Below, in pieces: positions 46,885 through 63,315 of a DNA stretch of 64,000 nt (position 1 is the first letter of the stretch; each line of letters opens with the position of its first letter). The notes under the pieces were generated by a model, which worked only from the letters and a program-made list of their open reading frames with translations, made no database searches and was not told where the DNA came from. The stretch comes from an uncultured Bacillales bacterium (GTDB taxonomy: Bacteria > Bacillota_I > Bacilli_A > RF39 > UBA660). The stretch spans positions 8,733 to 72,732 of the forward strand of contig CAMOWA010000002.1 in the NCBI GenBank assembly GCA_946628005.1, given 5' to 3'. A program made the translations under genes and the position numbers.

Positions 46885-48615
46885 TTAAGTTGTTTGAACA
46901 AACGTTTGTTGTTGCGTTTGTTGATTTTGCATTGCTTGAGTTAATCTATTCTTATTAATCATACGTCTAGCAGCACCCTTAACTGTTACTTTAGCATTAT
47001 TTAATTTATTACATATATTATGATTAAATTTTGCTTTATTTTGATATCTATTAGCTTGAAATTCATAAAAAGATGCTTTTAATTCATTAAACATACCATT
47101 AATAGCTCTTTCACTTGCTGCTAATTGCTTATAATCATCAGAATAATCTTTATATACTTCTTCTTTTGCTTCAAAATGTCTATTAATTAAGTATTTCTTT
47201 AGTTCTATAAATAGTTTTGGAGCCATTATCTTCTTCTGTACATTAACTATTTTAACTCTTGATTTTTGTAATTTACTTATTTTTTTATTTCTAACACTAA
47301 TTCTCTTATCAATAATATTTTTATGAAACTTAGATTTTATTTGTTCCTTATATTTTTTTAATTCTTCTATTTCTTTTTTTAACTTAATTACACTATCATT
47401 CTTTTTATTATATTTACTATCTAATTTTTCTAATAATGGATTATTTTTATAATCAACCTTAAGACTTTCCAATCTTTCTATCTCTTTTTCAAATGCTTTT
47501 ATTTTAACATCATAATGAGTAGCTAAAAGACCCAATTTAGGTTTCTTATTCTCATAATCATTCTTTTTAGATTTAAGTTTAGCAATAGAATTATTAAGTA
47601 CTTCTTCATATGTACTAACATGTTGGTTACTAAATTCTATAAGTTCTTCTTTTGATAAATCTTTTCTAAGTCTTTCTTTTAAATTATCATTTGTAACATT
47701 TAGTAATAATTGGTTAATATCATTTATTTTAGATAAATTATTTTTATTTTTATTAATCATTTCAAGAACTATATTATAATATTTATCTCTTATTCTAACA
47801 TCTAATCCATCATAATTTTGGTCTAAATAATTAAATATAGTGTCTAATTCATTATCCTTTATTTCTATATTAATATTATTTATTTCAACTAATTTAGGGC
47901 TTAAATCATGTCTTAAAATATAATTACTTGGATTTATACTATTAATAATACTTTCTACTTCAGTTTTATTTACATCATCTTGATATAATCTATTTATATT
48001 ATCTTCAGCTAATTTTATATAAATTTTATATTCTTCATCATCTAAAGTATTTCCTTCTAATAATTTAATTACTTCATGTAATTCAGATGTAGTTAATTTA
48101 GTTTTATTATTTACTATAACTGTTTTAGTAGTATTAGGCCCCATTGTATTAATATCATTAGCTATATTATTAAATTCATCTATTTTATCTTGTTCTAATT
48201 TATAATAATCCAAACTAGGATTGGCCATTTCTATTCCTTCTAATTCTTCTACTGATTTACCATTACTTGAACTTAATATTTCAGCTAATTGTTTTCTTTT
48301 CTTATATCTTTGCAATTGCCCATTAGGTAATTTTGCTACTAAATCATTAAAATTAGTTACTTGTTCTGGAGTTAAATTAAAATTATTAATATCTTCTTCT
48401 TCAATACCCATAAAGTCAGAATTAATATATTTTTCATCTTTATCTAATCCCAATATACTAGCTATTTCATATCTTATAAATAATGCTTTTAAATAATTAA
48501 TTTCATTTTGTAGATTATCTATTCTAGTTTGATTATTTGGTTGATTAGTCTTAATATCATTTAACTCATTTTCCCTTATTTTTAATAGTATTTCAGCTAA
48601 TTTTATATAGAACAT
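46885..48615 (-). CDS. Hypothetical coiled-coil protein (576 aa)
   Basis: SD AGGGGG 7 nt upstream of ATG 48615. Predominantly helical and charged with a Q-rich C-terminus. It occupies the position of spo0B in the Bacillus rpmA-spo0B-obg arrangement. Confidence 0.6.
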   Translation of the reverse strand: MFYIKLAEILLKIRENELNDIKTNQPNNQTRIDNLQNEINYLKALFIRYEIASILGLDKDEKYINSDFMGIEEEDINNFNLTPEQVTNFNDLVAKLPNGQLQRYKKRKQLAEILSSSNGKSVEELEGIEMANPSLDYYKLEQDKIDEFNNIANDINTMGPNTTKTVIVNNKTKLTTSELHEVIKLLEGNTLDDEEYKIYIKLAEDNINRLYQDDVNKTEVESIINSINPSNYILRHDLSPKLVEINNINIEIKDNELDTIFNYLDQNYDGLDVRIRDKYYNIVLEMINKNKNNLSKINDINQLLLNVTNDNLKERLRKDLSKEELIEFSNQHVSTYEEVLNNSIAKLKSKKNDYENKKPKLGLLATHYDVKIKAFEKEIERLESLKVDYKNNPLLEKLDSKYNKKNDSVIKLKKEIEELKKYKEQIKSKFHKNIIDKRISVRNKKISKLQKSRVKIVNVQKKIMAPKLFIELKKYLINRHFEAKEEVYKDYSDDYKQLAASERAINGMFNELKASFYEFQANRYQNKAKFNHNICNKLNNAKVTVKGAARRMINKNRLTQAMQNQQTQQQTFVQTT

Positions 48616-48625
48616 AGTATACCCC

Positions 48626-48901
48626 CTATTCATTAGTTAATAAATCTATTTCTTTATCAATCATCTCATCAACTTTTTTCTCTTCTTCGGAATCAGTTAT
48701 TGCTTCAAATTGATATTCATCATTTGAAATTTGATTTACTATTGAAACATAGATAACTATATTATTATCAACTTCTTCATTCTTAGTATATAATACATAT
48801 TCATGATTATATTCTTCTAATTGAAAAAAATCTATTACTTCAACTTCTTCCAATATACCATTTTCATTATAAACTTTTATTTTATTATGCATACCATTCA
48901 C
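48626..48901 (-). CDS. DUF1292-like small acidic protein
   Basis: The VYNENGILEEVEVIDFFQLEEYNHEYVLYTKNEE pattern is typical of DUF1292. Confidence 0.55.
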   Translation of the reverse strand: MNGMHNKIKVYNENGILEEVEVIDFFQLEEYNHEYVLYTKNEEVDNNIVIYVSIVNQISNDEYQFEAITDSEEEKKVDEMIDKEIDLLTNE

Positions 48902-49010: not shown

Positions 49011-49301
49011 TTATTCTCCTACTGGATATACACAAGCTTGTTTTTTGTCTCTTCCTAGTCTTTCATATTTTACTATACCATCAATTACTGAAAAGATTGT
49101 ATCGTCATTTCCTCTTCTAGTATTTTTTCCAGGAAATATTCTTGTTCCTCTTTGACGATATATAATTGAACCAGCTGTTACGAATTCACCATCAGCTGCT
49201 TTAGCTCCAAGTCTACGTCCTGCAGAATCACGACCATTAGATGTTGATCCTTGCCCTTTATGGTGAGCAAATAACTGTATATCTAATTTTAATAAATTCA
49301 T
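49011..49301 (-). CDS. rpmA: 50S ribosomal protein L27 with N-terminal Prp-cleavable propeptide
   Basis: [11 protein letters not shown]|[15 protein letters not shown]...; SD AAGGAGG 6 nt upstream of ATG 49301. The mature part aligns with E. coli AHKKAGGSTRNGRDS. Confidence 0.93.
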
Positions 49302-49312
49302 AGTCATCCTCC

Positions 49313-49615
49313 TTATTTTACTTCAATGTTATTGGGATAGTTCCCTGATAGTTCTTTTAATAGTTTTATCATATTTTTTATAAGTAATTGTGTTGTTCTA
49401 TCTTCTGATTTAACATCGATTGTCATTCCTTTTTTGCTTACCATATAACTAATATTATTATTATCTATTGAAAGAATTCCATTTACAGTAGTTGTTACAA
49501 TACTACTACATGCACTACAAACAATATCTTTTCCATAGTCATCATACATTGCATGTCCGATAATTTTTATCTTTTTATATTTTGCATTTTCTTTTTCTAC
49601 TCTTACTTGAATCAT
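49313..49615 (-). CDS. prp: Ribosomal-processing cysteine protease Prp (YsxB family)
   Basis: 100 aa, located between rplU and rpmA. His/Cys dyad contexts IIGHAMY and DIVCSACSS. Confidence 0.88.
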
Positions 49616-50060: not shown

Positions 50061-51794
50061 TTATTTTCTTTTTACTTTTTCATAAATAATATTTTTTATC
50101 TCTTTTATGTCTTCTTCTTCTATTATTGTATTATGGATAATTGCTTGAAATAATGCTTCTTTTTTATCTTCACTGTTTCTATCATAGTATCTTTTTACTC
50201 TATTTTTAGAGAAAAGTAGCCCATCAATTATATAAACTCTACTATTACTTTCTTCATATTCTAATAATTCTGGTATTTCTTCATAATTATTTCCTTTTTT
50301 ACAATATTTTTGATAATCTGGAACATCATTTATAATATATTGATCTAATTCATCATCTAGAAATTTATACTTCTTTTTTTCAATTATTTCATATAATTCT
50401 TTTATATTTTCTGTTAGTATACCAATACTTCTTAAAACATATAATCTTTTTATATTTTCGTTATTTAATATTTCTTGGTTTTTTTCTAATTCATTTTCTA
50501 ATCCTATTTCTAATGCATAATCAATTTTTTCTGCAAGATTAGGGTATCTTAAGTAATTTAAATTACCTTCTTTTGGTATATAATTTATTAAATCATATTC
50601 TTTTAATATTTTTATATTTATTTCTAAATAGTCATTGTTTATAATAACTTCGTTTGAATTATAAAATATCATTGGATTAATTTTTTCTAAATATAAAAAA
50701 TTAATACTATTTTGTAATGAGATATATTCTTCACTATTTTCATTTAATATTTTTGGATGATTAATTAAAGTTTGTTTATGAATAATTCCTTTTTTTATTA
50801 AATTTAATATTATATTGAAAATATATATATTTGATGTATTTTGTAAACATTTTATAATTATTTCTTTATTATTAAAATAGTTAGATAATTGATTTAATAT
50901 TTGTTCTACACCCTCCAAAGGTAATTTCATTATTTTTTCTAAGTCGATTTCATCCTCTTGAATATCATATCTTGATAATATTTTTATATAATCATATTTA
51001 AAATCTTCTTTTTCCATCATAATTTTTTTATCTAAATCTTCTTTAATATATATATTTCTATTATGTTTATCTATAAATAATAATAAATTACGTTTTATAT
51101 CATTATTCTTAATTGCATTTAGTAGTGGTTTATAATCATCTATAATATCTTCTTGTTCTTTATAACGTTCTATTATTTTTTTTGAATCTTTATAACGACT
51201 AATTTGTTTTTTTGTTTCTTTTATTCTGTAATTTTCTGCTTTAATTACTTGATTAATAGTTTTTTTATAATTATTTATTTCTTGATTATAGAATAATATG
51301 TTAATTGGATGAGTAGTGTTTTCATTTTGTGGAGTTTTAAAAAAGCAAAATAATACTATTGAACGGATTAATTTAACTTGGTATTTTTCTAAATATTCTA
51401 ATAATTTATTTATAGCGACTTCTATATTTTCATTGTTATTTATATATTTTCCAAATACTTGTTCTAAGATTTTATTATTAAATTTATTTATTCTGTTATT
51501 TCGAATGTTTTCTAAAACCATTACTAACATATCTATATCTTCTCTATTGATTTTATCAAAAAGTGGTTTTAATATTTCTAATTCTTCTTTTATTTTATAC
51601 ATTTTGTCGGTATTATCTTGTGTGAGATATATTAGAATATTATCTGATGGTGATAATTTTTTAGCGTTTTCATTATTATTTTCAATGGTTTCTTTTGCTT
51701 CATTATAAAATTCAATTATACTTTCTTTTTTCTTATTTTCATTATTTAACAATTCTATTTCATTATCAATTTGTTTTAATATATATTCTATCAT
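50061..51794 (-). CDS. Hypothetical helical protein (577 aa)
   Basis: SD AGAGGTGA. The ATG overlaps the upstream stop (ATGA), indicating translational coupling. No recognisable motif. Confidence 0.6.
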   Translation of the reverse strand: MIEYILKQIDNEIELLNNENKKKESIIEFYNEAKETIENNNENAKKLSPSDNILIYLTQDNTDKMYKIKEELEILKPLFDKINREDIDMLVMVLENIRNNRINKFNNKILEQVFGKYINNNENIEVAINKLLEYLEKYQVKLIRSIVLFCFFKTPQNENTTHPINILFYNQEINNYKKTINQVIKAENYRIKETKKQISRYKDSKKIIERYKEQEDIIDDYKPLLNAIKNNDIKRNLLLFIDKHNRNIYIKEDLDKKIMMEKEDFKYDYIKILSRYDIQEDEIDLEKIMKLPLEGVEQILNQLSNYFNNKEIIIKCLQNTSNIYIFNIILNLIKKGIIHKQTLINHPKILNENSEEYISLQNSINFLYLEKINPMIFYNSNEVIINNDYLEINIKILKEYDLINYIPKEGNLNYLRYPNLAEKIDYALEIGLENELEKNQEILNNENIKRLYVLRSIGILTENIKELYEIIEKKKYKFLDDELDQYIINDVPDYQKYCKKGNNYEEIPELLEYEESNSRVYIIDGLLFSKNRVKRYYDRNSEDKKEALFQAIIHNTIIEEEDIKEIKNIIYEKVKRK

Positions 51795-52729
51795 TTCTTT
51801 TTCACCTCTGCTTCTAATAATGAAAACAGTTCATTCTCAATATTTGTATTCTCATCTATATAATCAGCTTCAGTACGTAAATTTTCTATTTGTTCTTTTT
51901 CTGCTTTATATCTATTTATTTTTAATTCTAGATTTTCACGATAATCTTTGTCTTTATCTGATTTTTTAGTAAATATTGATATTATTACATATTGATTAAT
52001 AGAAATTCTTTCAAATACTACTCTTACTTGGTGTTCTTTTACCTCTGCAAAACCTTTTAATTTACTATTTGATACAAATCTTTTTACATTTTTAAATGTT
52101 CCATCTTTTATTGAGTTTAGTAATACTTTAATACGCTCATAAAAAGATGCGTCAATGTTTTTAACTTCTTCTATTGCTTGAATTTTACTAGATGGCGTTT
52201 TTGAAAATAATAATTGATTTTCTATTTGTATTTCTTGTTCATCTTCTATTTCTATATAATATGCTTTTTGTAATAGATTTCTTCTTTTATTAATTTCTAA
52301 GATCATTTGTTTAATATATATATAATCATCTATTGTTAATGTATTATCTCGATATAATATTTGATAATCTTTTAAACTTTCATTTAATTTTAGCAACATT
52401 TTTATAATTATTTCATGATATTTTTCATGTTTTATGGATGGTAAAGATTCTAAATACGTTGTTTCTAATTCTTCATCTGGTATACTCATAAATTCTGAAA
52501 AAAAGTATTCTAATTCATCATCTACTTTTTTACTATCTACTTTTTCTTCATCAACTATTTCTGCTAAGTTTTCTGATTCAGTTTTTTCAGTGGCTTTTTC
52601 TAGTTTTGATTTTGCTTCTAATATTCCTTTATATTCTTCTCTTCTTTTTTTATGGAATCGTATATTAGCTGTAATGATTGAATCTAACTCTTCAATTGAT
52701 TCTGTTCCATTTGTATCTATGTAGACCAT
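51791..52729 (-). CDS. Hypothetical protein (312 aa): acidic helical N-terminal part with a weak RelE/gp49(HigB)-like C-terminal segment
   Basis: SD GAAGGTGA upstream of ATG 52729. The C-terminal KLKGFAEVKEHQVRVVFERISINQYVIISIFTKKSDK resembles the gp49/HigB toxin-fold signature (g..El+....R+.f......++I...F.KK). Confidence 0.55.
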   Translation of the reverse strand: MVYIDTNGTESIEELDSIITANIRFHKKRREEYKGILEAKSKLEKATEKTESENLAEIVDEEKVDSKKVDDELEYFFSEFMSIPDEELETTYLESLPSIKHEKYHEIIIKMLLKLNESLKDYQILYRDNTLTIDDYIYIKQMILEINKRRNLLQKAYYIEIEDEQEIQIENQLLFSKTPSSKIQAIEEVKNIDASFYERIKVLLNSIKDGTFKNVKRFVSNSKLKGFAEVKEHQVRVVFERISINQYVIISIFTKKSDKDKDYRENLELKINRYKAEKEQIENLRTEADYIDENTNIENELFSLLEAEVKKK

Positions 52730-52734
52730 TTCTA

Positions 52735-54435
52735 TCACCTTCTAATTTTTCTTTTTTTCTTTATTACTTTTCCTATTCCTATAGTTGATGCGCCTATTAG
52801 AAATACTCCTCCAGCGCAATATGGTATTTTACTTGAATACTTAGGGAAGGATTTTATTTCATATTTTCTTAAATCATCATCTTCATTAGGCTTTGTATAG
52901 TCTCTTGTTGTAAAATCTATATCTAAATATCCATCACTATTTTTTGCAGGAGCATTAATACAACTATTGGTTGTTTGAATCATAGACGTAGAAAAGTCAG
53001 TTATTTCATCAAAATTTGGTTTTACATTAGCTATATCTACTTCTTCATTATAGTTTTCTCCTCCGGCTATCCATAGTTCAAAACGCTCATTTATCGTATT
53101 ATCCTTTTCTATAATCTTGTCCATTACTGATTGGTTTGAATATATACCAGGAATATAGCCATTTTCTGATATTTCTTTTTCCCATATAGATAGACAGTCT
53201 TCAAGATATAACTCTTCTATTTTACTTTCTAAATCTAAGTATACTGGATAATCTATTTGAAATTTTTTAATCGTTTCTAATGTTTTTTCTACTTGTTCTT
53301 TAAATCTTTTTATAAAATCTTCTTTAGATTCATTTTCTTTTTTGAATACTTCATTGACACAATATGCTCCTATTGAAATATTGTTTTCTATACAGTTTTT
53401 GGCATTATATTCAAAGCATTCATCTTTTACTACTCCATGGTTACTTCTAAGAATTATAAAATCAAAATCCATATTATCCCAATCTGTATTATTACCTTGC
53501 ATTTCACTTAAATCACATCCCATTAGTGGTTCTTCTAAAGTTACAAAAGATGTTTTATTATATGGTATCTTTTCAACAATATATGGTATTTTTATTGTTA
53601 CTGATTCACTATTATGAAATTTATGAGTTAATGATATTTTTAATAAATTATTATATTTTAATAATGTTTCTATACTTAAATTATATTTAAAAGATATTTC
53701 TTCTAACTCTTCAATAGATTTTATTGTTATTTTTTTATTTATTTTAAAATTTGATAAGTCATTTAATCTATTTTCTTCTATATATTTAACTATATCTTTT
53801 TTAGCGTGAATTTTTCCTTCTTCATCTTTATATATTACAAAGTTTCCTTCATAATCTTGTTTATCATCCTTTATTATATATACATCAGAATCTTTTATAT
53901 CTAAATATTTTTTTGCTTCATTTAGTAAATTATCTTCTCCATATAATCCTACATATATTCCATTTTGTTTACACATTTCTAAAAATATATTAATTAGTTT
54001 TTGTTTTTCAGTATTATTTAATTTGTCGTTTTTCATAATATTTTTAATGTTTAAGTATACAGGACATTTAACATCATATTTAGAAAGAATACTTTTTACA
54101 TATTCTACATCATTATATATATCATATTCTTTTTCTGCAGTACTATTTATTATTAGACCACATGCTATACCTTTTTCATTACAATATTTAATTTTTTGTT
54201 CAAAGAGAAGAGTTGCTAGATTTTTACTTGACCCTGCATCTAATAAAACAAAATCTGTACTTTTTACATTATAATTAAAGTAAGGATTTATATCTTCATG
54301 TCCTATTTCATGAGGTACTAGGTCTCCAGTAGTTAATTTTTCTTTATTTAAGTGAAAAGCAATACCTGTTCCTATGGCACCTGTTATTAATAATGCTAGT
54401 GGTATTGCTGGATTTATTTTTATTCTATTTGACAT
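52735..54435 (-). CDS. Bitopic membrane protein with two GH25-like modules and a LysM-like segment
   Basis: SD GGGGGAAGGAAA upstream of ATG 54435. N-terminal TM helix INPAIPLALLITGAIGTGIAF. The second module has GCDLSEMQGNNTDWDNMDFDFIILRS (GH25 DxSxxQG). The first module is degenerate (DFVLLDAGSS). The C-terminus has a TM helix and a KKKRKIRR tail. Confidence 0.65.
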   Translation of the reverse strand: MSNRIKINPAIPLALLITGAIGTGIAFHLNKEKLTTGDLVPHEIGHEDINPYFNYNVKSTDFVLLDAGSSKNLATLLFEQKIKYCNEKGIACGLIINSTAEKEYDIYNDVEYVKSILSKYDVKCPVYLNIKNIMKNDKLNNTEKQKLINIFLEMCKQNGIYVGLYGEDNLLNEAKKYLDIKDSDVYIIKDDKQDYEGNFVIYKDEEGKIHAKKDIVKYIEENRLNDLSNFKINKKITIKSIEELEEISFKYNLSIETLLKYNNLLKISLTHKFHNSESVTIKIPYIVEKIPYNKTSFVTLEEPLMGCDLSEMQGNNTDWDNMDFDFIILRSNHGVVKDECFEYNAKNCIENNISIGAYCVNEVFKKENESKEDFIKRFKEQVEKTLETIKKFQIDYPVYLDLESKIEELYLEDCLSIWEKEISENGYIPGIYSNQSVMDKIIEKDNTINERFELWIAGGENYNEEVDIANVKPNFDEITDFSTSMIQTTNSCINAPAKNSDGYLDIDFTTRDYTKPNEDDDLRKYEIKSFPKYSSKIPYCAGGVFLIGASTIGIGKVIKKKRKIRR

Positions 54436-54465
54436 TTTCCTTCCCCCATTCTTTGACTGTTTCAG

Positions 54466-54494
54466 ATTATACCACATATGTAGGGTTTTGTCAA
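54466..54494 (-). promoter_or_regulatory. Near-consensus sigma-A promoter for the GH25 cassette
   Basis: On the minus strand, TTGACA (54489-54494), a 17 nt spacer, then TGGTATAAT (TATAAT at 54466-54471). It lies inside the ORF-track N-terminal extension of the 592 aa ORF. Confidence 0.65.
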
Positions 54495-54532
54495 ATTTTT
54501 TCTTTTTTTTCATAAAAAAATCTGTAAAGAAT

Positions 54533-56479
54533 TTATTTCTTTATAGATTTTTTCTTTATTTTTATTGTTGGATATATTGCATTTAATAAAATACTATTTT
54601 CTGAATATTTTTTTAATTGTTTTTCTACTGCATTTTCTCCCTCTGTGACAATCAAATTATTAATATATTCTTTAAATTGATTATATTCTTCTAGATCGTA
54701 TGTTGATAAATCATATGAATTATTATCGTTTGTTTTATATTCTGCTATATATAAATAATTTGTATCTATATATGGTTCTATCAATTTACCATTTTCATAA
54801 TAATAGTATTTATTATTTATTTTATATATTGGCTCATTTATTTTTTTATTTATTTCTGTTTGATATTCTATTTCACATTCATTTGGTAGGCTTAATATTA
54901 GCTGACCTATATAATTATATATTTCTGTTTTATTTTCATTTTTGCATATGAAAATATCATCTAGAAAGTCTACTTTAGTATAATTATTATCATTAATTAT
55001 TTTTATTTCTGATTCATAATTTTTTTGGCAAGCTATTTTATAATAATCCTTTTCTTTTAAGGCTAGAAATAAGTAATTATAAATATTTTGTTTGTGGTCA
55101 AATCCTATTTTTATTTCTTTGTATTTTATTGGTAGAATTATTTTATCTTTTTTTGCTAAACCTAATAAATTTTTTTGTTTAATTATGTTTATGTCATTTA
55201 TTAATTCTTCTATACTATCATATTCTGCAGGTAATAATTTATTATCTTCTTTAAAAATTCTTGATGCGTAATATAATCCTACTTTGTTATCTTTTTTAAA
55301 AGTATAACCATTAAAATAAGTGTTGTGGTCAATTATAATACAATTTTCAATCAGTGGGGTAATTTTCCATTGATTATTTTCGTATTCCATTGTACATATT
55401 GTACTTATTCCATTATTATTAAGAATTATACTATATATTCCTATTTGTTCTATTGAATCATATCTTGGCTCTATTGGATTTTCATTATAGTTTAGACCTA
55501 TTGATAAGCCAAGTTTATTATCATTAATTAATACAAAGTTTTCATCTTTTATTTTTATTTTATCATAGTTTATTTTAACAATTTTCACTATTTTTGGCAT
55601 ATTCTCTTTATTATCCCAAAAGTTTACTGTTACTTTTATTATACCGTGTTTATTATTTTTTACTACATCAAAATAATGATCATATTTTCTGTCACCTATT
55701 TCTTTCTTATATAGTAAATTTATATCATCGTATTCTTCACTAGAAAATATTTTTTTTAAAGTTCTACTATATAGTATTTCAATTGTTTTATTATTTTTAC
55801 ATTTAAGCAAAGATCCTTCTATTATTTCTATTTTATTATATTTTTCTGTTTCTTTGATTTTTCCATCTACTTCTATTTTAGCATATTGTTGTTTATCTTT
55901 AGTAAAAATTAATAGCCCATAATCATTTTCTATATTATCGAATTCTAATGGTTCTTCTATTTCAAATAATTTATTTTCTACATTTATTTTTATTATTCCT
56001 TTTTTTTGTTTTGTTACTATAAAACTCTTATTTGATATTCCTTCAATATATTCTACTTTTTCAAAACCTTCATTTATAATATCATTTTTATTTCTTGCTG
56101 TATAACAATTAAATATATGATATTTATTTGTATTAGTATTTTTTAATATTAATAATTCCATATTGTCGTAATATAATGAAAAAATTTTGTGTTTTTCTAT
56201 TAATTCATAATTCTTAATAAACATACTTTTATTTTTCACATCATATATATTTATTGTATTATTTTCTTCGCTATTTTTATCTTTACTTATTAAGTATATA
56301 AATTTATTATTTTTATCATAATTTATATCATATTTTCCTTTTTCTATTATTAATTGTTTTGATTTTATGTTATATAGTGCGACATATCCATTATCTAATT
56401 TTACTATAGCTATATCATCAATAATTTCTAGATTGTTGTAAAATACTTTTTCTTTTATTATTTTATTTTCTATTTCCAT
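54533..56479 (-). CDS. WG-repeat-like beta-propeller-type protein (648 aa), tandem paralogue 2
   Basis: Repeats of the form NK.G(L/I)...(I/L)P..YD.I occur (NKLGLSIG...IEPRYDSIEQ, NKVGLYYA...LPAEYDSIEE, LLGLAKKDKIILPIKYKEIK). It is collinear with the upstream ORF. Confidence 0.55.
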   Translation of the reverse strand: MEIENKIIKEKVFYNNLEIIDDIAIVKLDNGYVALYNIKSKQLIIEKGKYDINYDKNNKFIYLISKDKNSEENNTINIYDVKNKSMFIKNYELIEKHKIFSLYYDNMELLILKNTNTNKYHIFNCYTARNKNDIINEGFEKVEYIEGISNKSFIVTKQKKGIIKINVENKLFEIEEPLEFDNIENDYGLLIFTKDKQQYAKIEVDGKIKETEKYNKIEIIEGSLLKCKNNKTIEILYSRTLKKIFSSEEYDDINLLYKKEIGDRKYDHYFDVVKNNKHGIIKVTVNFWDNKENMPKIVKIVKINYDKIKIKDENFVLINDNKLGLSIGLNYNENPIEPRYDSIEQIGIYSIILNNNGISTICTMEYENNQWKITPLIENCIIIDHNTYFNGYTFKKDNKVGLYYASRIFKEDNKLLPAEYDSIEELINDINIIKQKNLLGLAKKDKIILPIKYKEIKIGFDHKQNIYNYLFLALKEKDYYKIACQKNYESEIKIINDNNYTKVDFLDDIFICKNENKTEIYNYIGQLILSLPNECEIEYQTEINKKINEPIYKINNKYYYYENGKLIEPYIDTNYLYIAEYKTNDNNSYDLSTYDLEEYNQFKEYINNLIVTEGENAVEKQLKKYSENSILLNAIYPTIKIKKKSIKK

Positions 56480-56494
56480 AGATTACTCCTTGTT

Positions 56495-58411
56495 TTATAA
56501 TTTTTTTATTTTAACGCTAGGATTACTATTTTTTGCACCTTGGCTAAGTATACTTTCTAAGCATTCTTCTACCTCATTTTCATTATTATTCCCTATAAAT
56601 TTTATTAATTTTTTATATTCTTCTTCATCATATGTTGTTATTGTATATATTTGTTCATTCATTTTTAGTTCTACACTGTAATTATTTCTAACTTCTATAT
56701 AAGTTGGATATAATTTTCCATTTTCATAATAATAGTAATCTCCATTTATTTTAAATACTGGTGAATAGGATGTCTTCTTTACATTTTCTAGATATTCAAT
56801 TGTAGTATTTACTGGTAATTTTGCTACTAATTTATCGTTAAAATTATATATATAAGCAAAATAATCATCTCTACATATTATTAAATTTGCTATAAAGTCT
56901 ATTTCTATATATTCATTATTATCTATTATTTCTATTGGTTGATCTATTTCATCTCTTTTAGCAAGTTTGTATACTCCGTATTTTTTTAATGCAAAGTACA
57001 TTTTATCTTCATAAGTATCATAATGTTTTTCATCTATACCTATTTTAATATCTTCATATCCTTTATCTATAATTATTTTTCCTCTTTCTGCTAATTTTTT
57101 ATAGCCATTTTTTATTAAAAAGTAGAAATAGTTTTTAAATTTAATAATTTTATCATATTCATTTGGAATTATACCATCATCACTGCCATATGCGAATGAT
57201 GAAAAAAACATTCCCAATGAATCATCTTTTTCATAAATAAATGATTTATCATTTTCATCGTAATTAATAATTTTACATTCTTTTATTACTGAGGTCATTT
57301 TCGGATTATAATCTCTTCCAATAATTTTTGCGAATGTATATATGTCATTTATACCAAATAAATAGCTATTTATTCCTGTCCGTATTATTAAATCGTATTT
57401 AGGTTCTAATGGTTTTTTGTTTAGATTTTCTCCTATAGATAATCCTTTTTTATCATTTTTTATAATTATATAATCATCATCATTAAATATAATTTTATGA
57501 TATTTTATTTTTACTATTTCTTCTATTTTTGGTGGTAGACTTCCATTCTCAAATAAATTTATTGTTGTTTTTACAATACCTTGTAGACCATTTTTTTCTA
57601 CGTTAAGGAAATAGTCATATGTTCTATCCCTATACCTTACTTCTTTTATATGATCAATATTTATATCGTCATATTTATCACTTGATATTATTTTATTAAA
57701 TTTTCCTGTTTGAAGTATTTCTATTGTTTTTCCTCTTCTACATTTTATATGTCGTTTAACATATTGATCACTTTTTTCAAATTCTATTGTATTATAAGTC
57801 TCTGTTTTTTTACTTAAATCATCTCTTTTTTTAGCAATTTGATGATTATCTTTTGTAAATATGATTATAAATTCGTGACATTCAATTTTATCATATTCTA
57901 AAGGTTCTTCTAATTTTATTTTAAAATTATTTTTATTGTAACTATAAATTCCTTGTTTTTCTTTGGTAACTATAAATAAATGGTTTATATAATAATTTAT
58001 ATATTTTATATTATTAAAACTTTCTTCAAATATGTTATCTCCTGCTCTAGTAGCAAATGGACTAAATATATGCATACTATTATCTTGAGGATTTTTTAAA
58101 ATAAATATTATGTTATTATCATTACGTGTATCGAATGTGATTTTTTCTTTTATTATCCAGTCTTTAATAATTATTTTTCTTTTTTCTAGATCATATATAC
58201 TAATATTTTTATTAATATCCATAATATATATGTAATTATTTATACTATCTATAAATGTTTCATATTTTCCTTTTTCTACTATTAGTTTTTTTTCTTTTTT
58301 ATCATATAAAATTGTGTTTTTATTTCTTAAATGTATAATTTCTATATCATCTATTCTTTGTATGTTATTATTTACTAGTAATTCTTTTTTTATTTTAGTT
58401 TCAACCTGCAT
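56495..58411 (-). CDS. WG-repeat-like protein (638 aa), tandem paralogue 1
   Basis: SD AAAAGGAGAG. It shares its N-terminus (M.(V/I)E.KI.KE......I..IDDI.I..L.N......Y....K.LI.EKGKY) and its C-terminus (KIN..YYYYENGKL) with 54533-56479. Confidence 0.55.
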   Translation of the reverse strand: MQVETKIKKELLVNNNIQRIDDIEIIHLRNKNTILYDKKEKKLIVEKGKYETFIDSINNYIYIMDINKNISIYDLEKRKIIIKDWIIKEKITFDTRNDNNIIFILKNPQDNSMHIFSPFATRAGDNIFEESFNNIKYINYYINHLFIVTKEKQGIYSYNKNNFKIKLEEPLEYDKIECHEFIIIFTKDNHQIAKKRDDLSKKTETYNTIEFEKSDQYVKRHIKCRRGKTIEILQTGKFNKIISSDKYDDINIDHIKEVRYRDRTYDYFLNVEKNGLQGIVKTTINLFENGSLPPKIEEIVKIKYHKIIFNDDDYIIIKNDKKGLSIGENLNKKPLEPKYDLIIRTGINSYLFGINDIYTFAKIIGRDYNPKMTSVIKECKIINYDENDKSFIYEKDDSLGMFFSSFAYGSDDGIIPNEYDKIIKFKNYFYFLIKNGYKKLAERGKIIIDKGYEDIKIGIDEKHYDTYEDKMYFALKKYGVYKLAKRDEIDQPIEIIDNNEYIEIDFIANLIICRDDYFAYIYNFNDKLVAKLPVNTTIEYLENVKKTSYSPVFKINGDYYYYENGKLYPTYIEVRNNYSVELKMNEQIYTITTYDEEEYKKLIKFIGNNNENEVEECLESILSQGAKNSNPSVKIKKL

Positions 58412-58508: not shown

Positions 58509-60842
58509 TTATTCATTTATTGGATTTTGAGATACATAGTTTCTTACTATTTCTAGAGTTTTTTGATATTCAGACTCTAATTCTTGAAAATGTTCTTGTA
58601 CATAGTTTGAATCGTTTTCTTTACTTTTTAATTCGTGTTGATAACTAATATCTGCTAAAGTCATAAAACCTAAATATTTACAATCACTTTTTAAGGAATG
58701 TACTAATATAGCATATTCTGACATGTTATTTTCATTTTTATATTTTAATATATTATTCCATTTTTCATCAATTTCTTTTGAAAAGTCTTGTATAGTCATA
58801 TTGTACATTTCCATATCTCCTAATAATTCTAAGGCATGATTCATATCTACTCCATTTTTTCTTAGATAATTTTCATCATATTTTTCACTGCTTTTTTCTT
58901 CCAATTGTACTACTGGTATGGTTTCTATTTCATTACTTAGTACTTCAATAGGCTCTATATGATCTATTTTTATTGGAGATGGGGGTATTATATTATTTTC
59001 TTCTATATTATCTTTTGTATCATGCTGTATGAAATTTTCTTTAATAATTCGGTTTAATACTTCAATTAATTGGTCTTTTTCAATAGGTTTTGCTAGATAA
59101 TCAGAAAAACCATCACTAATATATTTTTCTCTCATTCCACTAATTGCATTGGCAGTTAAAGCTATAACAGGTGTATTAAAATTATCTATTTCTTTTAATT
59201 TTTTTAATGTTTCTACTCCACTCATTTTTGGCATCATATCGTCTAAAAGAATAATATCAAACTTATCTTTGTTTTTTATTTTTGAAATACATTCAAATCC
59301 ACTTTCGCAGGTTGTTATCATGTTTGCATTAAATTTTTCTAATAATTTTTTAGCAACTTTTAAATTTAGAGGAGTATCATCTACTATTAATATTTTAATA
59401 TTATATAAATCTAATGTACTTTGTACTTGGTCATTTTTTTCCTGTTCTTCATTTTTTATTGTTTGATTTATTACAACTGTAAATTTACTCCCTTCACCAT
59501 ATACTGTATGAACTATTATTTTTCCACCCATTAATTCAATTAATTGTTTTGTTATTGCTAATCCTAATCCAGTTCCTTCTATTGTTGTATTTTTATCTTC
59601 ATCTAATCTTTGAAATTTAGTAAACATTTTGTCAATATTTTCTTTTTTTATTCCTCTTCCAGAGTCTTCTACAGATATTATTAACTTAGTTGCTTTTTCA
59701 GCATTAACACAATTTACCTCATAATGTACATAACCTTTTTCTGTATACTTACATGCATTACTTAGTAAGTTTGTTATAACTTTTTTTAAATTAGCGTGAT
59801 CTCCATAAAGTGTTTTTGGTAAATCATCTGCTATTTTATAGGTAAATTCTAATCCTTTATCTCGAGCTTTTATTTCTATCATTTTAGCTAAACCTTCAAA
59901 TAATTTTTTAGCATTATATTTTGAATCAATAATTTCGACTTTTCCAGCTTCTATTTTTGATATATCTAATATTCCGTTTACTATTTCTAATAATGTATCC
60001 GAAGCATTTATGATATCTTTGGCATTTTCTTTTGCTTCGTCTAATGATTTTGCGTCCATTATACAATCACTAAAACCAACTATTGCATTAAGAGGGGTCC
60101 TTATTTCATGAGACATACTTGATAAAAAATCTGTTTTAGCTCGACTAGCTTGTTCTGCTTTTTCTTTTGCAAGTTCAAGTTGTTGTATCATTCTCATATC
60201 AGGATTTTCTATTGTAAAAAACATTATATAATTAATAAATGTCAATGAAATAGATATGATGATTAAATATGGATTAAAATGAGATATGATTATTAATAAT
60301 ATTATACTAATTATTACAGATATTAATGGTATATAACGTTTATCTATTTTTTTGGGATTTAAAATCATTACTGTTAAAGATAACATTATATAAAATGATA
60401 CTGCTAAAACAAGAAACTTTATTGATGAACCATCTACACTAAAATGTCCGTTACTACTTATTACTGATATATTTCCTAAAAGTATAAATATTGAAAATAT
60501 GATATCTACTATTGCGACATATTGAATAATTGACTCAGAGTTATCTCTTATTTTTTGATAAGTTATAATTGCTATATATAAAAATAAAGAACTCATATAT
60601 ATTATTAATAAAATAAAATCAAATTTATTTAATATTTGTATAATTATATCTATAGTTGGAGTAATAGTATTAAAGGAAAATGATTGTAATATTGTTACTA
60701 GTATAGAATCAATCAATACTGTTATTATCATTATTGAGTACATATTATTTTCTAGTAATGGTAATCTTTTTTTTATAAAAAAACATATACATAATAATAT
60801 CGAAAAAATAATTGAACATATTGGTAATAATAATCCCTGCAT
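58509..60842 (-). CDS. Hybrid sensor histidine kinase: multi-TM sensor - HisKA - HATPase - REC - Hpt
   Basis: About 6-7 N-terminal TM helices. H-box SHEIRTPLN; N/G boxes LLSNACKYT, DSGRGI and GTGLGLAITK. REC motifs ILIVDD, LLDDMMPKMSG and KPI. The C-terminal Hpt domain has VHSLKSDCKYLG. Confidence 0.85.
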   Translation of the reverse strand: MQGLLLPICSIIFSILLCICFFIKKRLPLLENNMYSIMIITVLIDSILVTILQSFSFNTITPTIDIIIQILNKFDFILLIIYMSSLFLYIAIITYQKIRDNSESIIQYVAIVDIIFSIFILLGNISVISSNGHFSVDGSSIKFLVLAVSFYIMLSLTVMILNPKKIDKRYIPLISVIISIILLIIISHFNPYLIIISISLTFINYIMFFTIENPDMRMIQQLELAKEKAEQASRAKTDFLSSMSHEIRTPLNAIVGFSDCIMDAKSLDEAKENAKDIINASDTLLEIVNGILDISKIEAGKVEIIDSKYNAKKLFEGLAKMIEIKARDKGLEFTYKIADDLPKTLYGDHANLKKVITNLLSNACKYTEKGYVHYEVNCVNAEKATKLIISVEDSGRGIKKENIDKMFTKFQRLDEDKNTTIEGTGLGLAITKQLIELMGGKIIVHTVYGEGSKFTVVINQTIKNEEQEKNDQVQSTLDLYNIKILIVDDTPLNLKVAKKLLEKFNANMITTCESGFECISKIKNKDKFDIILLDDMMPKMSGVETLKKLKEIDNFNTPVIALTANAISGMREKYISDGFSDYLAKPIEKDQLIEVLNRIIKENFIQHDTKDNIEENNIIPPSPIKIDHIEPIEVLSNEIETIPVVQLEEKSSEKYDENYLRKNGVDMNHALELLGDMEMYNMTIQDFSKEIDEKWNNILKYKNENNMSEYAILVHSLKSDCKYLGFMTLADISYQHELKSKENDSNYVQEHFQELESEYQKTLEIVRNYVSQNPINE

Positions 60843-60885: not shown

Positions 60886-60915
60886 ATAAAAAAAGAAGAA
60901 TTTAAAATCTTCTTT
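60886..60915 (-). terminator. Rho-independent terminator overlapping the acyltransferase stop
   Basis: AAAGAAGA (60892-60899) pairs with TCTTCTTT (60908-60915). A T-run follows on the minus strand. Confidence 0.55.
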
Positions 60916-62041
60916 GAAAATTGTTTTTAATTAGTTTTTTTGCATTTACTATACTGTGAGCGTTCTTAGGAGTTATGTTTTTAATCTTAGCTATATCTTG
61001 TAAAGCTTTATAATATTCCATTTCTTTTTTTGTTTGATAGTCTGCAGTTGTTTCTATTTCAGGGTCATAGTAATCAACTGTTTTTATTCTTTCTTTTAAT
61101 TGTTCTTCCCACGCTTCTACTGAATAGTAGTGATCTTTTAATAATTCATCTCTTGTTGTTTTGCCATATTTTTGCATCATTAAGTATGTCCAATATGCTA
61201 ATTTATCACGTAAATAAATTAAGGCTTCTTCTTCGCTGAATTTTGTTAAATCAATTGGTTCATCTATAACTGTATGAATAATATCATTTTTATCTTCTTT
61301 ATGTAATTCTCTTTTATAATGTACTACTGGTACTACTTTTACGTTTGCTTCTTTAGCAATTTTATATATTCCTGGCCAAAGATGTAAAACAAGTTTATTA
61401 GGACTTTTATTCCATACTCCTTCAGGATAGATTATTATATCTTTTTTCATTTGTAATATTTTTACACACTTTTTAATACTTGATTTTTTTGACGAGTCTA
61501 ATTTTCTATTTACTAATATCACTCCGTTTAGCCAGGATATTATACCATCTATTGTATTATAAAATTGTGGTAGGCTTCCAAATAAAATATAAGCATTTTT
61601 ATTTGCTGATAGGACTGTTGCCAAAGCGTCATCTTTAAAACCATGATTAGCTACCCAAATTACCGTTTCGTCTTTATTAAGCTTTATTCCTTCATCTTTT
61701 GCTAATAAATTAGTGTCTAATTCTACATTTTCTCCTAGTTTTAATTGTTCTTTATAATTGAAAAATCTTAATTCATTTCTATCTTCAAATATTTGTTTAC
61801 TTTTTAAAAAACTTGGACCATATTTTTTTACTATTTTATTTATTTTATCTCTATATTTCATACTTTTTTCAGAAATTATTTTATTTTCGTCATTATCTAA
61901 TAAATAATCAAAATGATTAGCTAGAAAATAAAATAATATAGATGGTCTTTTATTACCTATTAAATCTTTTATATTAATAATTTTATCTTTATATTTTTTT
62001 TCTATTTTTTTTATTATTAATTTATTCATTTTCCGACCCAC
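60902..62041 (-). CDS. Acyltransferase (PlsC/LPLAT-like) with an N-terminal extension of about 130 aa
   Basis: HX4D motif in VANHGFKDDA and a downstream IYPEG motif. The likely start is GTG 62041 (SD GAAGGAGA). Confidence 0.6.
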   Translation of the reverse strand: MGRKMNKLIIKKIEKKYKDKIINIKDLIGNKRPSILFYFLANHFDYLLDNDENKIISEKSMKYRDKINKIVKKYGPSFLKSKQIFEDRNELRFFNYKEQLKLGENVELDTNLLAKDEGIKLNKDETVIWVANHGFKDDALATVLSANKNAYILFGSLPQFYNTIDGIISWLNGVILVNRKLDSSKKSSIKKCVKILQMKKDIIIYPEGVWNKSPNKLVLHLWPGIYKIAKEANVKVVPVVHYKRELHKEDKNDIIHTVIDEPIDLTKFSEEEALIYLRDKLAYWTYLMMQKYGKTTRDELLKDHYYSVEAWEEQLKERIKTVDYYDPEIETTADYQTKKEMEYYKALQDIAKIKNITPKNAHSIVNAKKLIKNNFQRRF

Positions 62042-62640: not shown

Positions 62641-62664
62641 AAAAAAAAGAAGAATTTATTCTTC
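62641..62664 (-). terminator. Rho-independent terminator overlapping the rpmF stop
   Basis: GAAGAA (62649-62654) pairs with TTCTTC (62659-62664). A T-run (8 T) follows on the minus strand. Confidence 0.55.
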
Positions 62665-62862
62665 TCCTTTTGATATTTCTACTTTTCCTTTATAACTTCC
62701 ACATTTTGGACATACTCTATGAGGTTTAATCATTTCTCCACAACTAGGACATTTTGTCATTCCTGGAATATCCATTGCATTATGACTTCTTCTCATTCTT
62801 TTTCTAGTTTTTGAAACTTTACGGAAAGGAACCGCAAACATTTGAATATCTAGTTTCATCAT
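62656..62862 (-). CDS. rpmF: 50S ribosomal protein L32 with a 9-residue L27-like N-terminal extension
   Basis: [27 protein letters not shown]...[28 protein letters not shown] (62868-62873) lies 5 nt upstream of ATG 62862. Canonical L32 begins (M)AVPFR. Confidence 0.85.
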
Positions 62863-62910
62863 ATTATCCCTCCTTTTCACTATCTTTACTATCACGATTT
62901 TCAATCTATT

Positions 62911-63315
62911 CTATAAATCTTCTTCGCGAATTAATTTCCATCCATCTCCATGTATTTTACTTATATCTTTTACTTCTGTAAAGTACGTGGGGACCTCTAG
63001 TACAATATTTTCCCATAAAAATGCTAAAATATCAAGACTATTTTCATTTTTTATATAAATTTTATCTATATCTTCATCTACTTCTAAATTTATCGGATAT
63101 ATAATTTCTTCTAATGTTATGCTATCTAATATCTTTATTTTTGTTTTAATATTACAATTAATATGTATTGATTGGTAGTCATTATTTATTATGTTTCCTT
63201 TTACTTCAACCGGAAAGTGCTGTATGATTTCTGGATAATTAAAATTATCATTAAAATAATAGAATCCACTAATATCTATTATTTTATCATTTATTAATAT
63301 TGTATTATTCTTCAT
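62911..63315 (-). CDS. yceD: YceD/DUF177-family protein (ribosome-associated, upstream of rpmF)
   Basis: Conserved yceD-rpmF synteny. C-terminal LDILAFLWENIVLEVP matches the DUF177 iDL...i.e.i.L..P signature. Confidence 0.6.
   Translation of the reverse strand: MKNNTILINDKIIDISGFYYFNDNFNYPEIIQHFPVEVKGNIINNDYQSIHINCNIKTKIKILDSITLEEIIYPINLEVDEDIDKIYIKNENSLDILAFLWENIVLEVPTYFTEVKDISKIHGDGWKLIREEDL

Follow-up and report, generated by a model that had tools for sequence, protein, structure and literature searches.

Does the removable N-terminal peptide of ribosomal protein L27, which the cysteine protease Prp cuts off in Firmicutes, also serve a second protein of the large ribosomal subunit? The question is raised by rpmF, the gene of ribosomal protein L32, in a stretch of 64,000 nucleotides (hereafter the window) from an uncultured Bacillales bacterium (contig CAMOWA010000002.1, positions 8,733 to 72,732 of the forward strand). 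The original prediction, made from the letters of the window, held that L32 starts nine codons ahead of its canonical N-terminus with a peptide, MMKLDIQMF, almost identical to the L27 propeptide encoded in the same window. Our comparisons show that this tag is real and translated, that purifying selection on it is strong, and that it stops exactly where canonical mature L32 begins. We infer that the precursor (pre-L32) is probably cut by Prp between Phe9 and Ala10.

The reading of the gene itself is straightforward, and everything first stated about the sequence proved right on checking. On the minus strand, the Shine-Dalgarno sequence (SD) GGAGGG (62873-62868) is followed by the 5-nt spacer ATAAT and the ATG at 62862-62860, nine codons ahead of the canonical L32 start, as originally proposed. 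From this ATG, the sequence reads as a 68-residue rpmF frame (62862..62656) that ends with TAA at 62658-62656. The nine propeptide codons (M-M-K-L-D-I-Q-M-F), read directly, occupy 62836..62862; the predicted cut falls after Phe9, between 62836 and 62835; and the part coding for mature L32, from Ala10 to Glu68 plus the TAA, spans 62656..62835 (all minus strand). The Pfam profile Ribosomal_L32p (PF01783) aligns its positions 1-55 of 56 with residues 10-64 (E = 1.9e-24), and because this match begins at residue 10, the first nine residues are extra to the family. The protein is the zinc-ribbon (C+) form of L32 (Cys38, Cys41, Cys51 and Cys54), and the CxxC...CxxC pattern is invariant. Against solved structures, Ala10 aligns with residue 1 or 2 of L32 from Bacillus subtilis, Staphylococcus aureus, Listeria and Enterococcus and with residue 3-5 of that from Thermus and Deinococcus. 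It corresponds to residue 2 of the B. subtilis protein, so that the junction does lie at the ordinary mature N-terminus. Extra N-terminal residues of this kind were found in no bacterial L32 chain among all the solved structures compared. Mitochondrial bL32m chains, which have 60-80 extra residues, align to window L32 only from about residue 63-80 on.

How close is the likeness to L27? The octamers KLDIQMFA (L32) and KLDIQLFA (L27) are identical at 7 of 8 positions. When the window is translated in all six frames, giving 127,954 octamers, at least 6 of 8 matches are reached only at the L27 and L32 tag sites. About 0.004 sites with at least 7 of 8 matches would be expected by chance in the window (p ~3e-8 for a single fixed position), so chance resemblance is rejected, in agreement with the judgement first made from the sequence. 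We also reject a recent duplication, at the DNA level, of the 5' end of rpmA, because 6 of the 24 nucleotides are not shared by the two tags and most of these differences are synonymous; this divergence implies that the likeness has been kept at the protein level.

The protease that would act on such a tag is encoded 13 kb from rpmF in a minus-strand rplU-prp-rpmA operon. Its first gene, rplU (L21; 49920..49618), matches PF00829 (E = 2.8e-34), and it is followed by prp, encoding the ribosomal-processing cysteine protease (49615..49313; PF04327, E = 4e-23), and rpmA (L27; 49011..49301), with propeptide codons at 49301..49269 and a mature start reading AHHKGQGS. In an alignment with S. aureus Prp (PDB 4PEO/7KLD), the GHA...DIVC residues His21, Asp30 and Cys33 of the window Prp fall on His22, Asp31 and Cys34. 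The gene is thus identified as prp by its profile match, by the catalytic dyad and by its place between rplU and rpmA, and the earlier claim that it is intact holds. Translation of L27 most likely starts at ATG 49301, with the SD AAGGAGG 6 nt upstream; ATG 49307 is unlikely as a start because it abuts this SD.

Is the extension a peculiarity of one genome? A protein search with pre-L32 yielded 989 relatives, and M(M/L)xL(D/N)IQ(M/L/F)F↓AVP (↓ marks the predicted cut) is present in 119 of the 120 best clusters. By a pattern scan of one genome per species we obtained 454 related rpmF genes, the best 80 of which were compared in detail at the level of the locus (81 genes with that of the window). 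All of these 80 come from uncultured gut or rumen metagenome-assembled genomes, variously labelled as Bacilli, Mollicutes, Tenericutes, Erysipelotrichaceae or 'Candidatus Onthousia', and the assemblies with tagged L32 are independent, coming from human, rumen, chicken, rabbit and other guts. Every one of the 80 carries the tag M(M/L)KLDIQ(M/L)F↓AVPF and has GGAG(T/G)G 5-9 nt ahead of the first ATG. The alignment that had been proposed as a check therefore finds both the tag codons and the upstream SD kept throughout. In a search with cluster representatives, two further tagged L32 subfamilies were found, here called THYKI (e.g. MLKLDIQLF↓AVPFRK) and THLKK; for the latter, a protein search that started from the divergent representative P0128 recovered the tag in 118 of 120 clusters. 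Among 120 matches to K(L/F)DIQxFA in unselected metagenome contigs, 33 are L27 and 16 are L32, from which it follows that about half of the organisms with the exact L27 tag place it on L32 too.

Two kinds of irregular L32 were met in these searches. One rpmF gene (L036) reads KLVIQLF↓AVPF, with Val at P5 and an intact prp 10 kb downstream; the Val reflects either tolerated variation or an error of sequencing. In five proteins (P0027, P0029, P0053, P0073 and P0097), tagged L32 is fused to an unrelated C-terminal sequence (NrdD-like, or extra zinc ribbons); these lie on contigs of about 1 kb and are probably assembly or gene-calling chimeras.

The same loci show how the tag is selected. Over tag codons 3-9 in the 81 genes, the proportions of synonymous (pS) and non-synonymous (pN) differences are 0.54 and 0.038 (pN/pS 0.07), comparable to the pN/pS of 0.05-0.11 in mature L32. 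Synonymous variation is plentiful in the tag (GAT/GAC, AAA/AAG, ATT/ATC, TTT/TTC and GCN). The tag is thus selected as a peptide, and purifying selection on it is as strong as in mature L32.

These data also bear on whether the extension could be an annotation artefact, with the true start at the internal ATG 62841 (giving MFAVPF) or with the extra codons arising from an error of assembly or gene calling. What speaks for it is that 61 of the 81 genes, that of the window among them, have ATG at codon 8 (P2). The codon is, however, TTA in 10 and TTG in 10 of the others; TTG can initiate in translation table 11, but TTA cannot. Moreover, nothing resembling an SD was seen ahead of codon 8 across the 81 genes; the only one stands 5-9 nt before the first ATG. 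Since TTA cannot initiate and no SD precedes codon 8, an internal start is unlikely, as the original prediction had supposed, and it is rejected here. Together with the low pN/pS of the tag and its presence in independent assemblies from many guts, this effectively refutes the artefact, which we consider scarcely credible.

Which positions of the tag are kept? We counted residues at each position in the 119 tagged L32 clusters and in the 120 L27 clusters closest to the window protein. P1 is Phe in all 119 L32 and all 120 L27 clusters, and P1' is Ala in the same numbers. Nearly as constant are P3 (Gln; 118 and 119, respectively), P4 (Ile; 118 and 116), P5 (Asp or Asn in 118 L32 clusters, Asp in 115 L27 clusters) and P6 (Leu; 118 and 120). 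P2 is Met, Leu or Phe in L32 and Leu in 119 L27 clusters, and P7 varies in L32 (Lys, Thr, Ala, Arg, Asn, Glu or Gln) and is Lys in 108 L27 clusters. The L27 consensus is L-K-L-D-I-Q-L-F↓A-H-H-K-G, set against a general Firmicute L27 motif of (D/N)LQ(F/L)F↓A (PMC9405229). By this comparison, the L32 tag is the lineage's own L27 tag, down to the Ile typical of the lineage at P4, a position held by Leu in the general Firmicute motif. In S. aureus Prp, binding of P1-P3 is the chief determinant of specificity, with Gln at P3 essential; the side chain of Asn or Asp at P5 stabilizes the substrate conformation, and an 11-mer peptide suffices as substrate (PMC9261936). A change at P1 (F12A) abolishes cleavage by Prp. 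To judge from the alignments, the positions conserved in the L32 tag mirror those read by the protease, and P7 and P8 drift. The sequence L-(D/N)-(L/I)-Q-(F/L/M)-F↓A, which characterizes Prp substrates, is found within about 12 residues of the initiator Met.

Do tag and protease occur together? We inspected contigs and 10-kb rpmF flanks with both regions within reach. Tagged L32, Prp and tagged L27 are found together in 7 of 7 such genomes (the window, L032, L033, L039, L044, L050 and L080), and two more loci contain tagged L32 with Prp at the edge of the flank. The GHA...DIVC residues are kept in all nine Prp genes seen (i.e. that of the window and those of eight related loci). The two regions lie 7-13 kb apart only in the window's own lineage: no rplU-prp-rpmA was found within 10 kb of rpmF for P0037, P0108 and P0486, and no locus in the metagenome sample has the genes of both tagged L32 and tagged L27.

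Beyond the ribosome, the tag is frequent in phages. In viral contigs (L084-L157), K(L/F)DIQxF↓A has 74 matches, about 65 of them at the N-terminus of large open reading frames (ORFs; e.g. in L086, L088, L089, L090, L091, L094, L098 and L112). Of eight phage proteins compared with PHROGs, seven are major head proteins, each of a different PHROG family, and the eighth is a tape-measure protein. What follows the Ala differs widely among phage tags, and Met occurs at P2. In its sequence contexts, the heptapeptide plus Ala behaves as a portable, stand-alone module on unrelated proteins. Phage use of the host Prp tag seems, from these matches, to be far wider than the published case of phage 80alpha and to include tail proteins.

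Several observations weigh against cleavage of L32 by Prp. First, the cut is read from sequence and the carriers are uncultured. Second, some close relatives lack the tag. One (L162, 317-502) reads GAGAGGAGTGAGAAA-ATG-GCT-GTA-CCA-TTT, i.e. M↓AVPF, with its own SD and no tag; a short (P0270) and a long (P0271) L32 share one 90% cluster; and a short, untagged L32 (P0523) stands inside the THLKK subfamily. The tag has thus been gained or lost at shallow evolutionary depth and is dispensable for L32 function as such. Third, the THLKK proteins (P0410-P0527) have tags in two forms, MKL(D/N)LQLF↓AVPARR and MKL(D/N)I(Q/T)LF↓GALP(A/F)RR, the second with one extra residue; one gene of this type (L163, 10001-10213) has the SD AGGAGG ahead of the tag ATG. 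THLKK tags have Thr at P3 in 26 of 113 and Gly at P1' in 47 of 113. This Thr conflicts with the reported specificity of S. aureus Prp, and KLDITLFG was found in no phage protein in the viral contig search. Gly at P1' does occur in some phage tags (about 6 of 26 matches). In the lineages with KL(D/N)ITLF↓GALP, the specificity of Prp may have changed, or the tag may no longer be under Prp control or may have taken another role. Fourth, the two substrates differ beyond the cut, with A-H-H-K in L27 against A-V-P-F, including proline at P3', in L32, and V-P after the tag Ala is absent among the phage tags sampled. Finally, co-occurrence with prp covers only 9 of 81 loci, since prp usually lies over 10 kb from rpmF or on another contig, and all seven L27-L32 tag pairs carry one motif.

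The original prediction had named orthologues lacking the extension as evidence that would count against it. On this point the outcome is divided: a few such orthologues do exist (L162/P0112, P0270 and P0523), but they start precisely at M↓AVP, which argues for the predicted cut point rather than against it. Either route, removal of Met from M-A or a cut at F↓A, would give the invariant AVP N-terminus, and in all 81 genes of the locus comparison the tag ends at F↓A right before AVP.

Could the extension instead be translated and conserved but retained on mature L32, with a role of its own and a likeness to L27 that reflects only common descent? The THLKK variants with Thr at P3 or Gly at P1' are compatible with this, as they stay conserved though they depart from the known Prp motif; so are the untagged relatives, which show that the N-terminus tolerates different histories, and the fact that the cut in L32 is deduced rather than seen. 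A retained extension does not account, however, for conservation at exactly the positions that Prp reads while P7 and P8 drift, nor for a tag that always stops at the same point before AVP. In addition, a Prp acting on the same heptapeptide of L27 is present in the same cell, many unrelated phage proteins bear the same tag as a portable module at their N-terminus, and no solved bacterial L32 has such extra residues. We therefore regard retention as quite improbable.

A different alternative accepts that the tag is cut, by Prp or another protease, and places its selected role elsewhere: as a decoy that titrates Prp (e.g. against phages), or as a means of coupling the supply of L32 to that of L27. 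Phages of hosts that carry the motif do put the tag on head and tape-measure proteins, and a 2025 preprint speculates on a role of the L27 extension in phage defence (PMC12324487). Streptococcus pneumoniae TIGR4 has an alternative protease for L27, and gain or loss of the tag at shallow depth would also fit. A precise end at the canonical mature N-terminus would, however, be needless for a decoy, and the tag is kept on L32 across three subfamilies. Such a role is, in our view, unlikely, and maturation of pre-L32 by Prp is the reading that we follow below.

Which other cellular proteins carry the tag? Related bacterial loci totalling 1.34 Mb contain the motif only in 80 L32 and 7 L27 genes and at 3 out-of-frame junk sites. 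A motif scan had been suggested along with the prediction; over these loci and the metagenome contig sample, it leaves L27 and L32 as the sole recurrent cellular carriers. There are two single-contig exceptions, one uS5 and one RTX-repeat protein, and the other real N-terminal tags are on phage structural proteins.

The uS5 gene (L252, contig Ga0164313_10001208, 8426-9307, minus strand) encodes a 140-residue acidic extension that begins MTINKFDIQFF↓AEEDT, followed over residues 141-287 by the N and C domains of Pfam S5. It lies in the gene cluster L14-L24-L5-S14-S8-L6-L18-S5-L15-SecY-Adk; translated with table 11, SecY comes out in pieces, suggesting a code-4 Mollicute. This uS5 is possibly a third tagged ribosomal protein, seen on one contig; its exact sequence has no match in the protein collection. 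The RTX-repeat protein (L283, 1-3207, minus strand) has 1069 residues with nine stretches of Pfam HemolysinCabind and begins MSKLKFDIQFF↓AETYYG.

The scan also found octamers within proteins, in two unrelated families: one is ATPase-like and has KLDIQVFATTHSWDC close to its C-terminus, the other is periplasmic-binding-like and has GKFDIQVFAAGEI. The contigs concerned are L198, L218, L237, L263, L277, L279, L280 and L303, and also L202, L224, L235, L242, L247, L261, L272 and L299. Such octamers far from the N-terminus are chance or convergent matches and a source of false positives for motif scans.

A broader reading sees in the tag a portable module for making pro-proteins, attached on several occasions to ribosomal as well as to phage structural proteins: group-wide to bL27, in several lineages of uncultured gut Bacilli or Mollicutes-like bacteria to bL32, and possibly to uS5. 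Prp would then be a multi-substrate convertase gating the entry of several proteins into the ribosome. We put this forward tentatively and rate its chances at somewhat under even.

How does the proposed maturation compare with known systems? The closest is that of Prp and L27 in Firmicutes (S. aureus Prp, MEROPS C108; pre-L27 MLKLNLQFF↓ASKK). Shared features are (i) a tag, 8-11 residues long, that contains L-(D/N)-(L/I)-Q-x-F↓A, (ii) a prp gene between rplU and rpmA that encodes the catalytic His and Cys, (iii) a large-subunit protein as substrate and (iv) a cut that exposes the N-terminus of untagged orthologues. The present case is unlike it in that the substrate is L32, with its gene outside the prp operon and its cleavage predicted; in that the P' side is A-V-P-F in L32 against A-(S/H)-(K/H)-K in L27; and in that the L32 tag is polymorphic among close relatives, whereas long L27 has been described in all Firmicutes (PMC9405229, PMC12324487). 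In phage 80alpha, the scaffold protein gp46 and the major capsid protein gp47 are cleaved by host Prp and resemble tagged L32 in having an L27-type tag as a removable module on an unrelated protein, but they are viral proteins that exploit a host enzyme, and L32 is a core cellular protein. FlhB, a proposed Prp substrate (PMC9405229), is likewise a cellular protein with an N-terminal L27-like motif put forward from its sequence; it is a membrane export-gate protein and not a ribosomal one.

By analogy only, mitochondrial bL32m (MrpL32) offers a parallel within the same family: the N-terminus of its precursor is removed by the m-AAA protease before assembly (PMC5438985). The differences are considerable, however. 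The MrpL32 presequence has about 71 residues, and the enzyme is a processive, ATP-dependent membrane protease that stalls at the zinc ribbon, so that the cut site is set by structure. Window L32 has nine extra residues and a predicted cut defined by sequence.

In the literature searchable to August 2026, L27, the 80alpha proteins gp46 and gp47 and the proposed FlhB are named as Prp substrates, and neither L32 nor 'pre-L32' is ever named. The earlier remark that no description of L32 as a Prp substrate was known is thus borne out, and one recent account states that other Prp substrates are unknown (PMC12324487). As far as we know, the case of L32, in which the same protease and tag would act on a new ribosomal substrate, is undescribed.

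What else surrounds rpmF in the window? Directly upstream, on the same strand, lies a YceD/DUF177-like gene (62911..63315, minus strand), the usual yceD-rpmF arrangement; its Pfam match is weak (E = 2e-4; 21.8 bits, short of the curated threshold of 33.2). In related loci too, rpmF has an ORF of about this size immediately upstream. At the other end of the gene, an AT-rich hairpin noted by eye (AGAAGAAT / ATTCTTCT; 62641..62665, minus strand) overlaps the rpmF stop codon and is followed by a T run. It is possibly the terminator of the operon, on weak evidence; a terminator scan that requires at least three G-C pairs did not report it. An Rfam scan of the whole 64 kb found no family at gathering score, and no tRNA, riboswitch or L21 leader upstream of rplU; no leader RNA therefore accounts for the conserved rpmF 5' region.

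The region that separates the two ribosomal loci holds a row of five ORFs (50061-58411, minus strand; 315-648 residues) that belong to no Pfam family; next come genes for a hybrid histidine kinase/response regulator (58509-60842) and for an acyltransferase (60902-62041). Just past rpmA lies one more ORF (46885-48633; 582 residues), rich in Asn, Lys and Ile like the five without a Pfam family. The G+C content of the window is 22-30% throughout.

In the maturation that we propose, translation of rpmF from ATG 62862 would yield the 68-residue pre-L32, whose first nine residues are a peptide-level copy of the lineage's L27 cleavage tag. Prp, encoded 13 kb away, would recognize P7-P1 (K-L-D-I-Q-M-F) and cut between Phe9 and Ala10, and the released protein, AVPFRK..., would have the N-terminus of untagged L32 after removal of its methionine. 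In mature 50S subunits, the L32 tail at the N-terminus lies buried within rRNA. By analogy with L27, and as speculation, the tag could hold this tail back from insertion or action in the 50S subunit until a defined step of assembly. In the searchable literature, no paper turned up on where the L32 N-terminus lies.

In S. aureus, Prp is an essential enzyme, and efforts are under way to exploit it as a target for narrow-spectrum antibiotics. The L32 tag, conserved under strong selection in hundreds of species, indicates that such a tag is not peculiar to L27 or to the peptidyl-transferase centre. For annotation, the predicted mature L32 of the carriers has 59 residues, not 68. The natural pairs of tagged and untagged L32 in close relatives constitute a comparative system for the purpose of the tag. 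If the proposed cleavage is true, L32 would be the second large-subunit protein that Prp matures from a pro-protein. This suggests that proteolytic licensing of ribosomal proteins may be a more general strategy, with a parallel in the maturation of mitochondrial L32 by the m-AAA protease.

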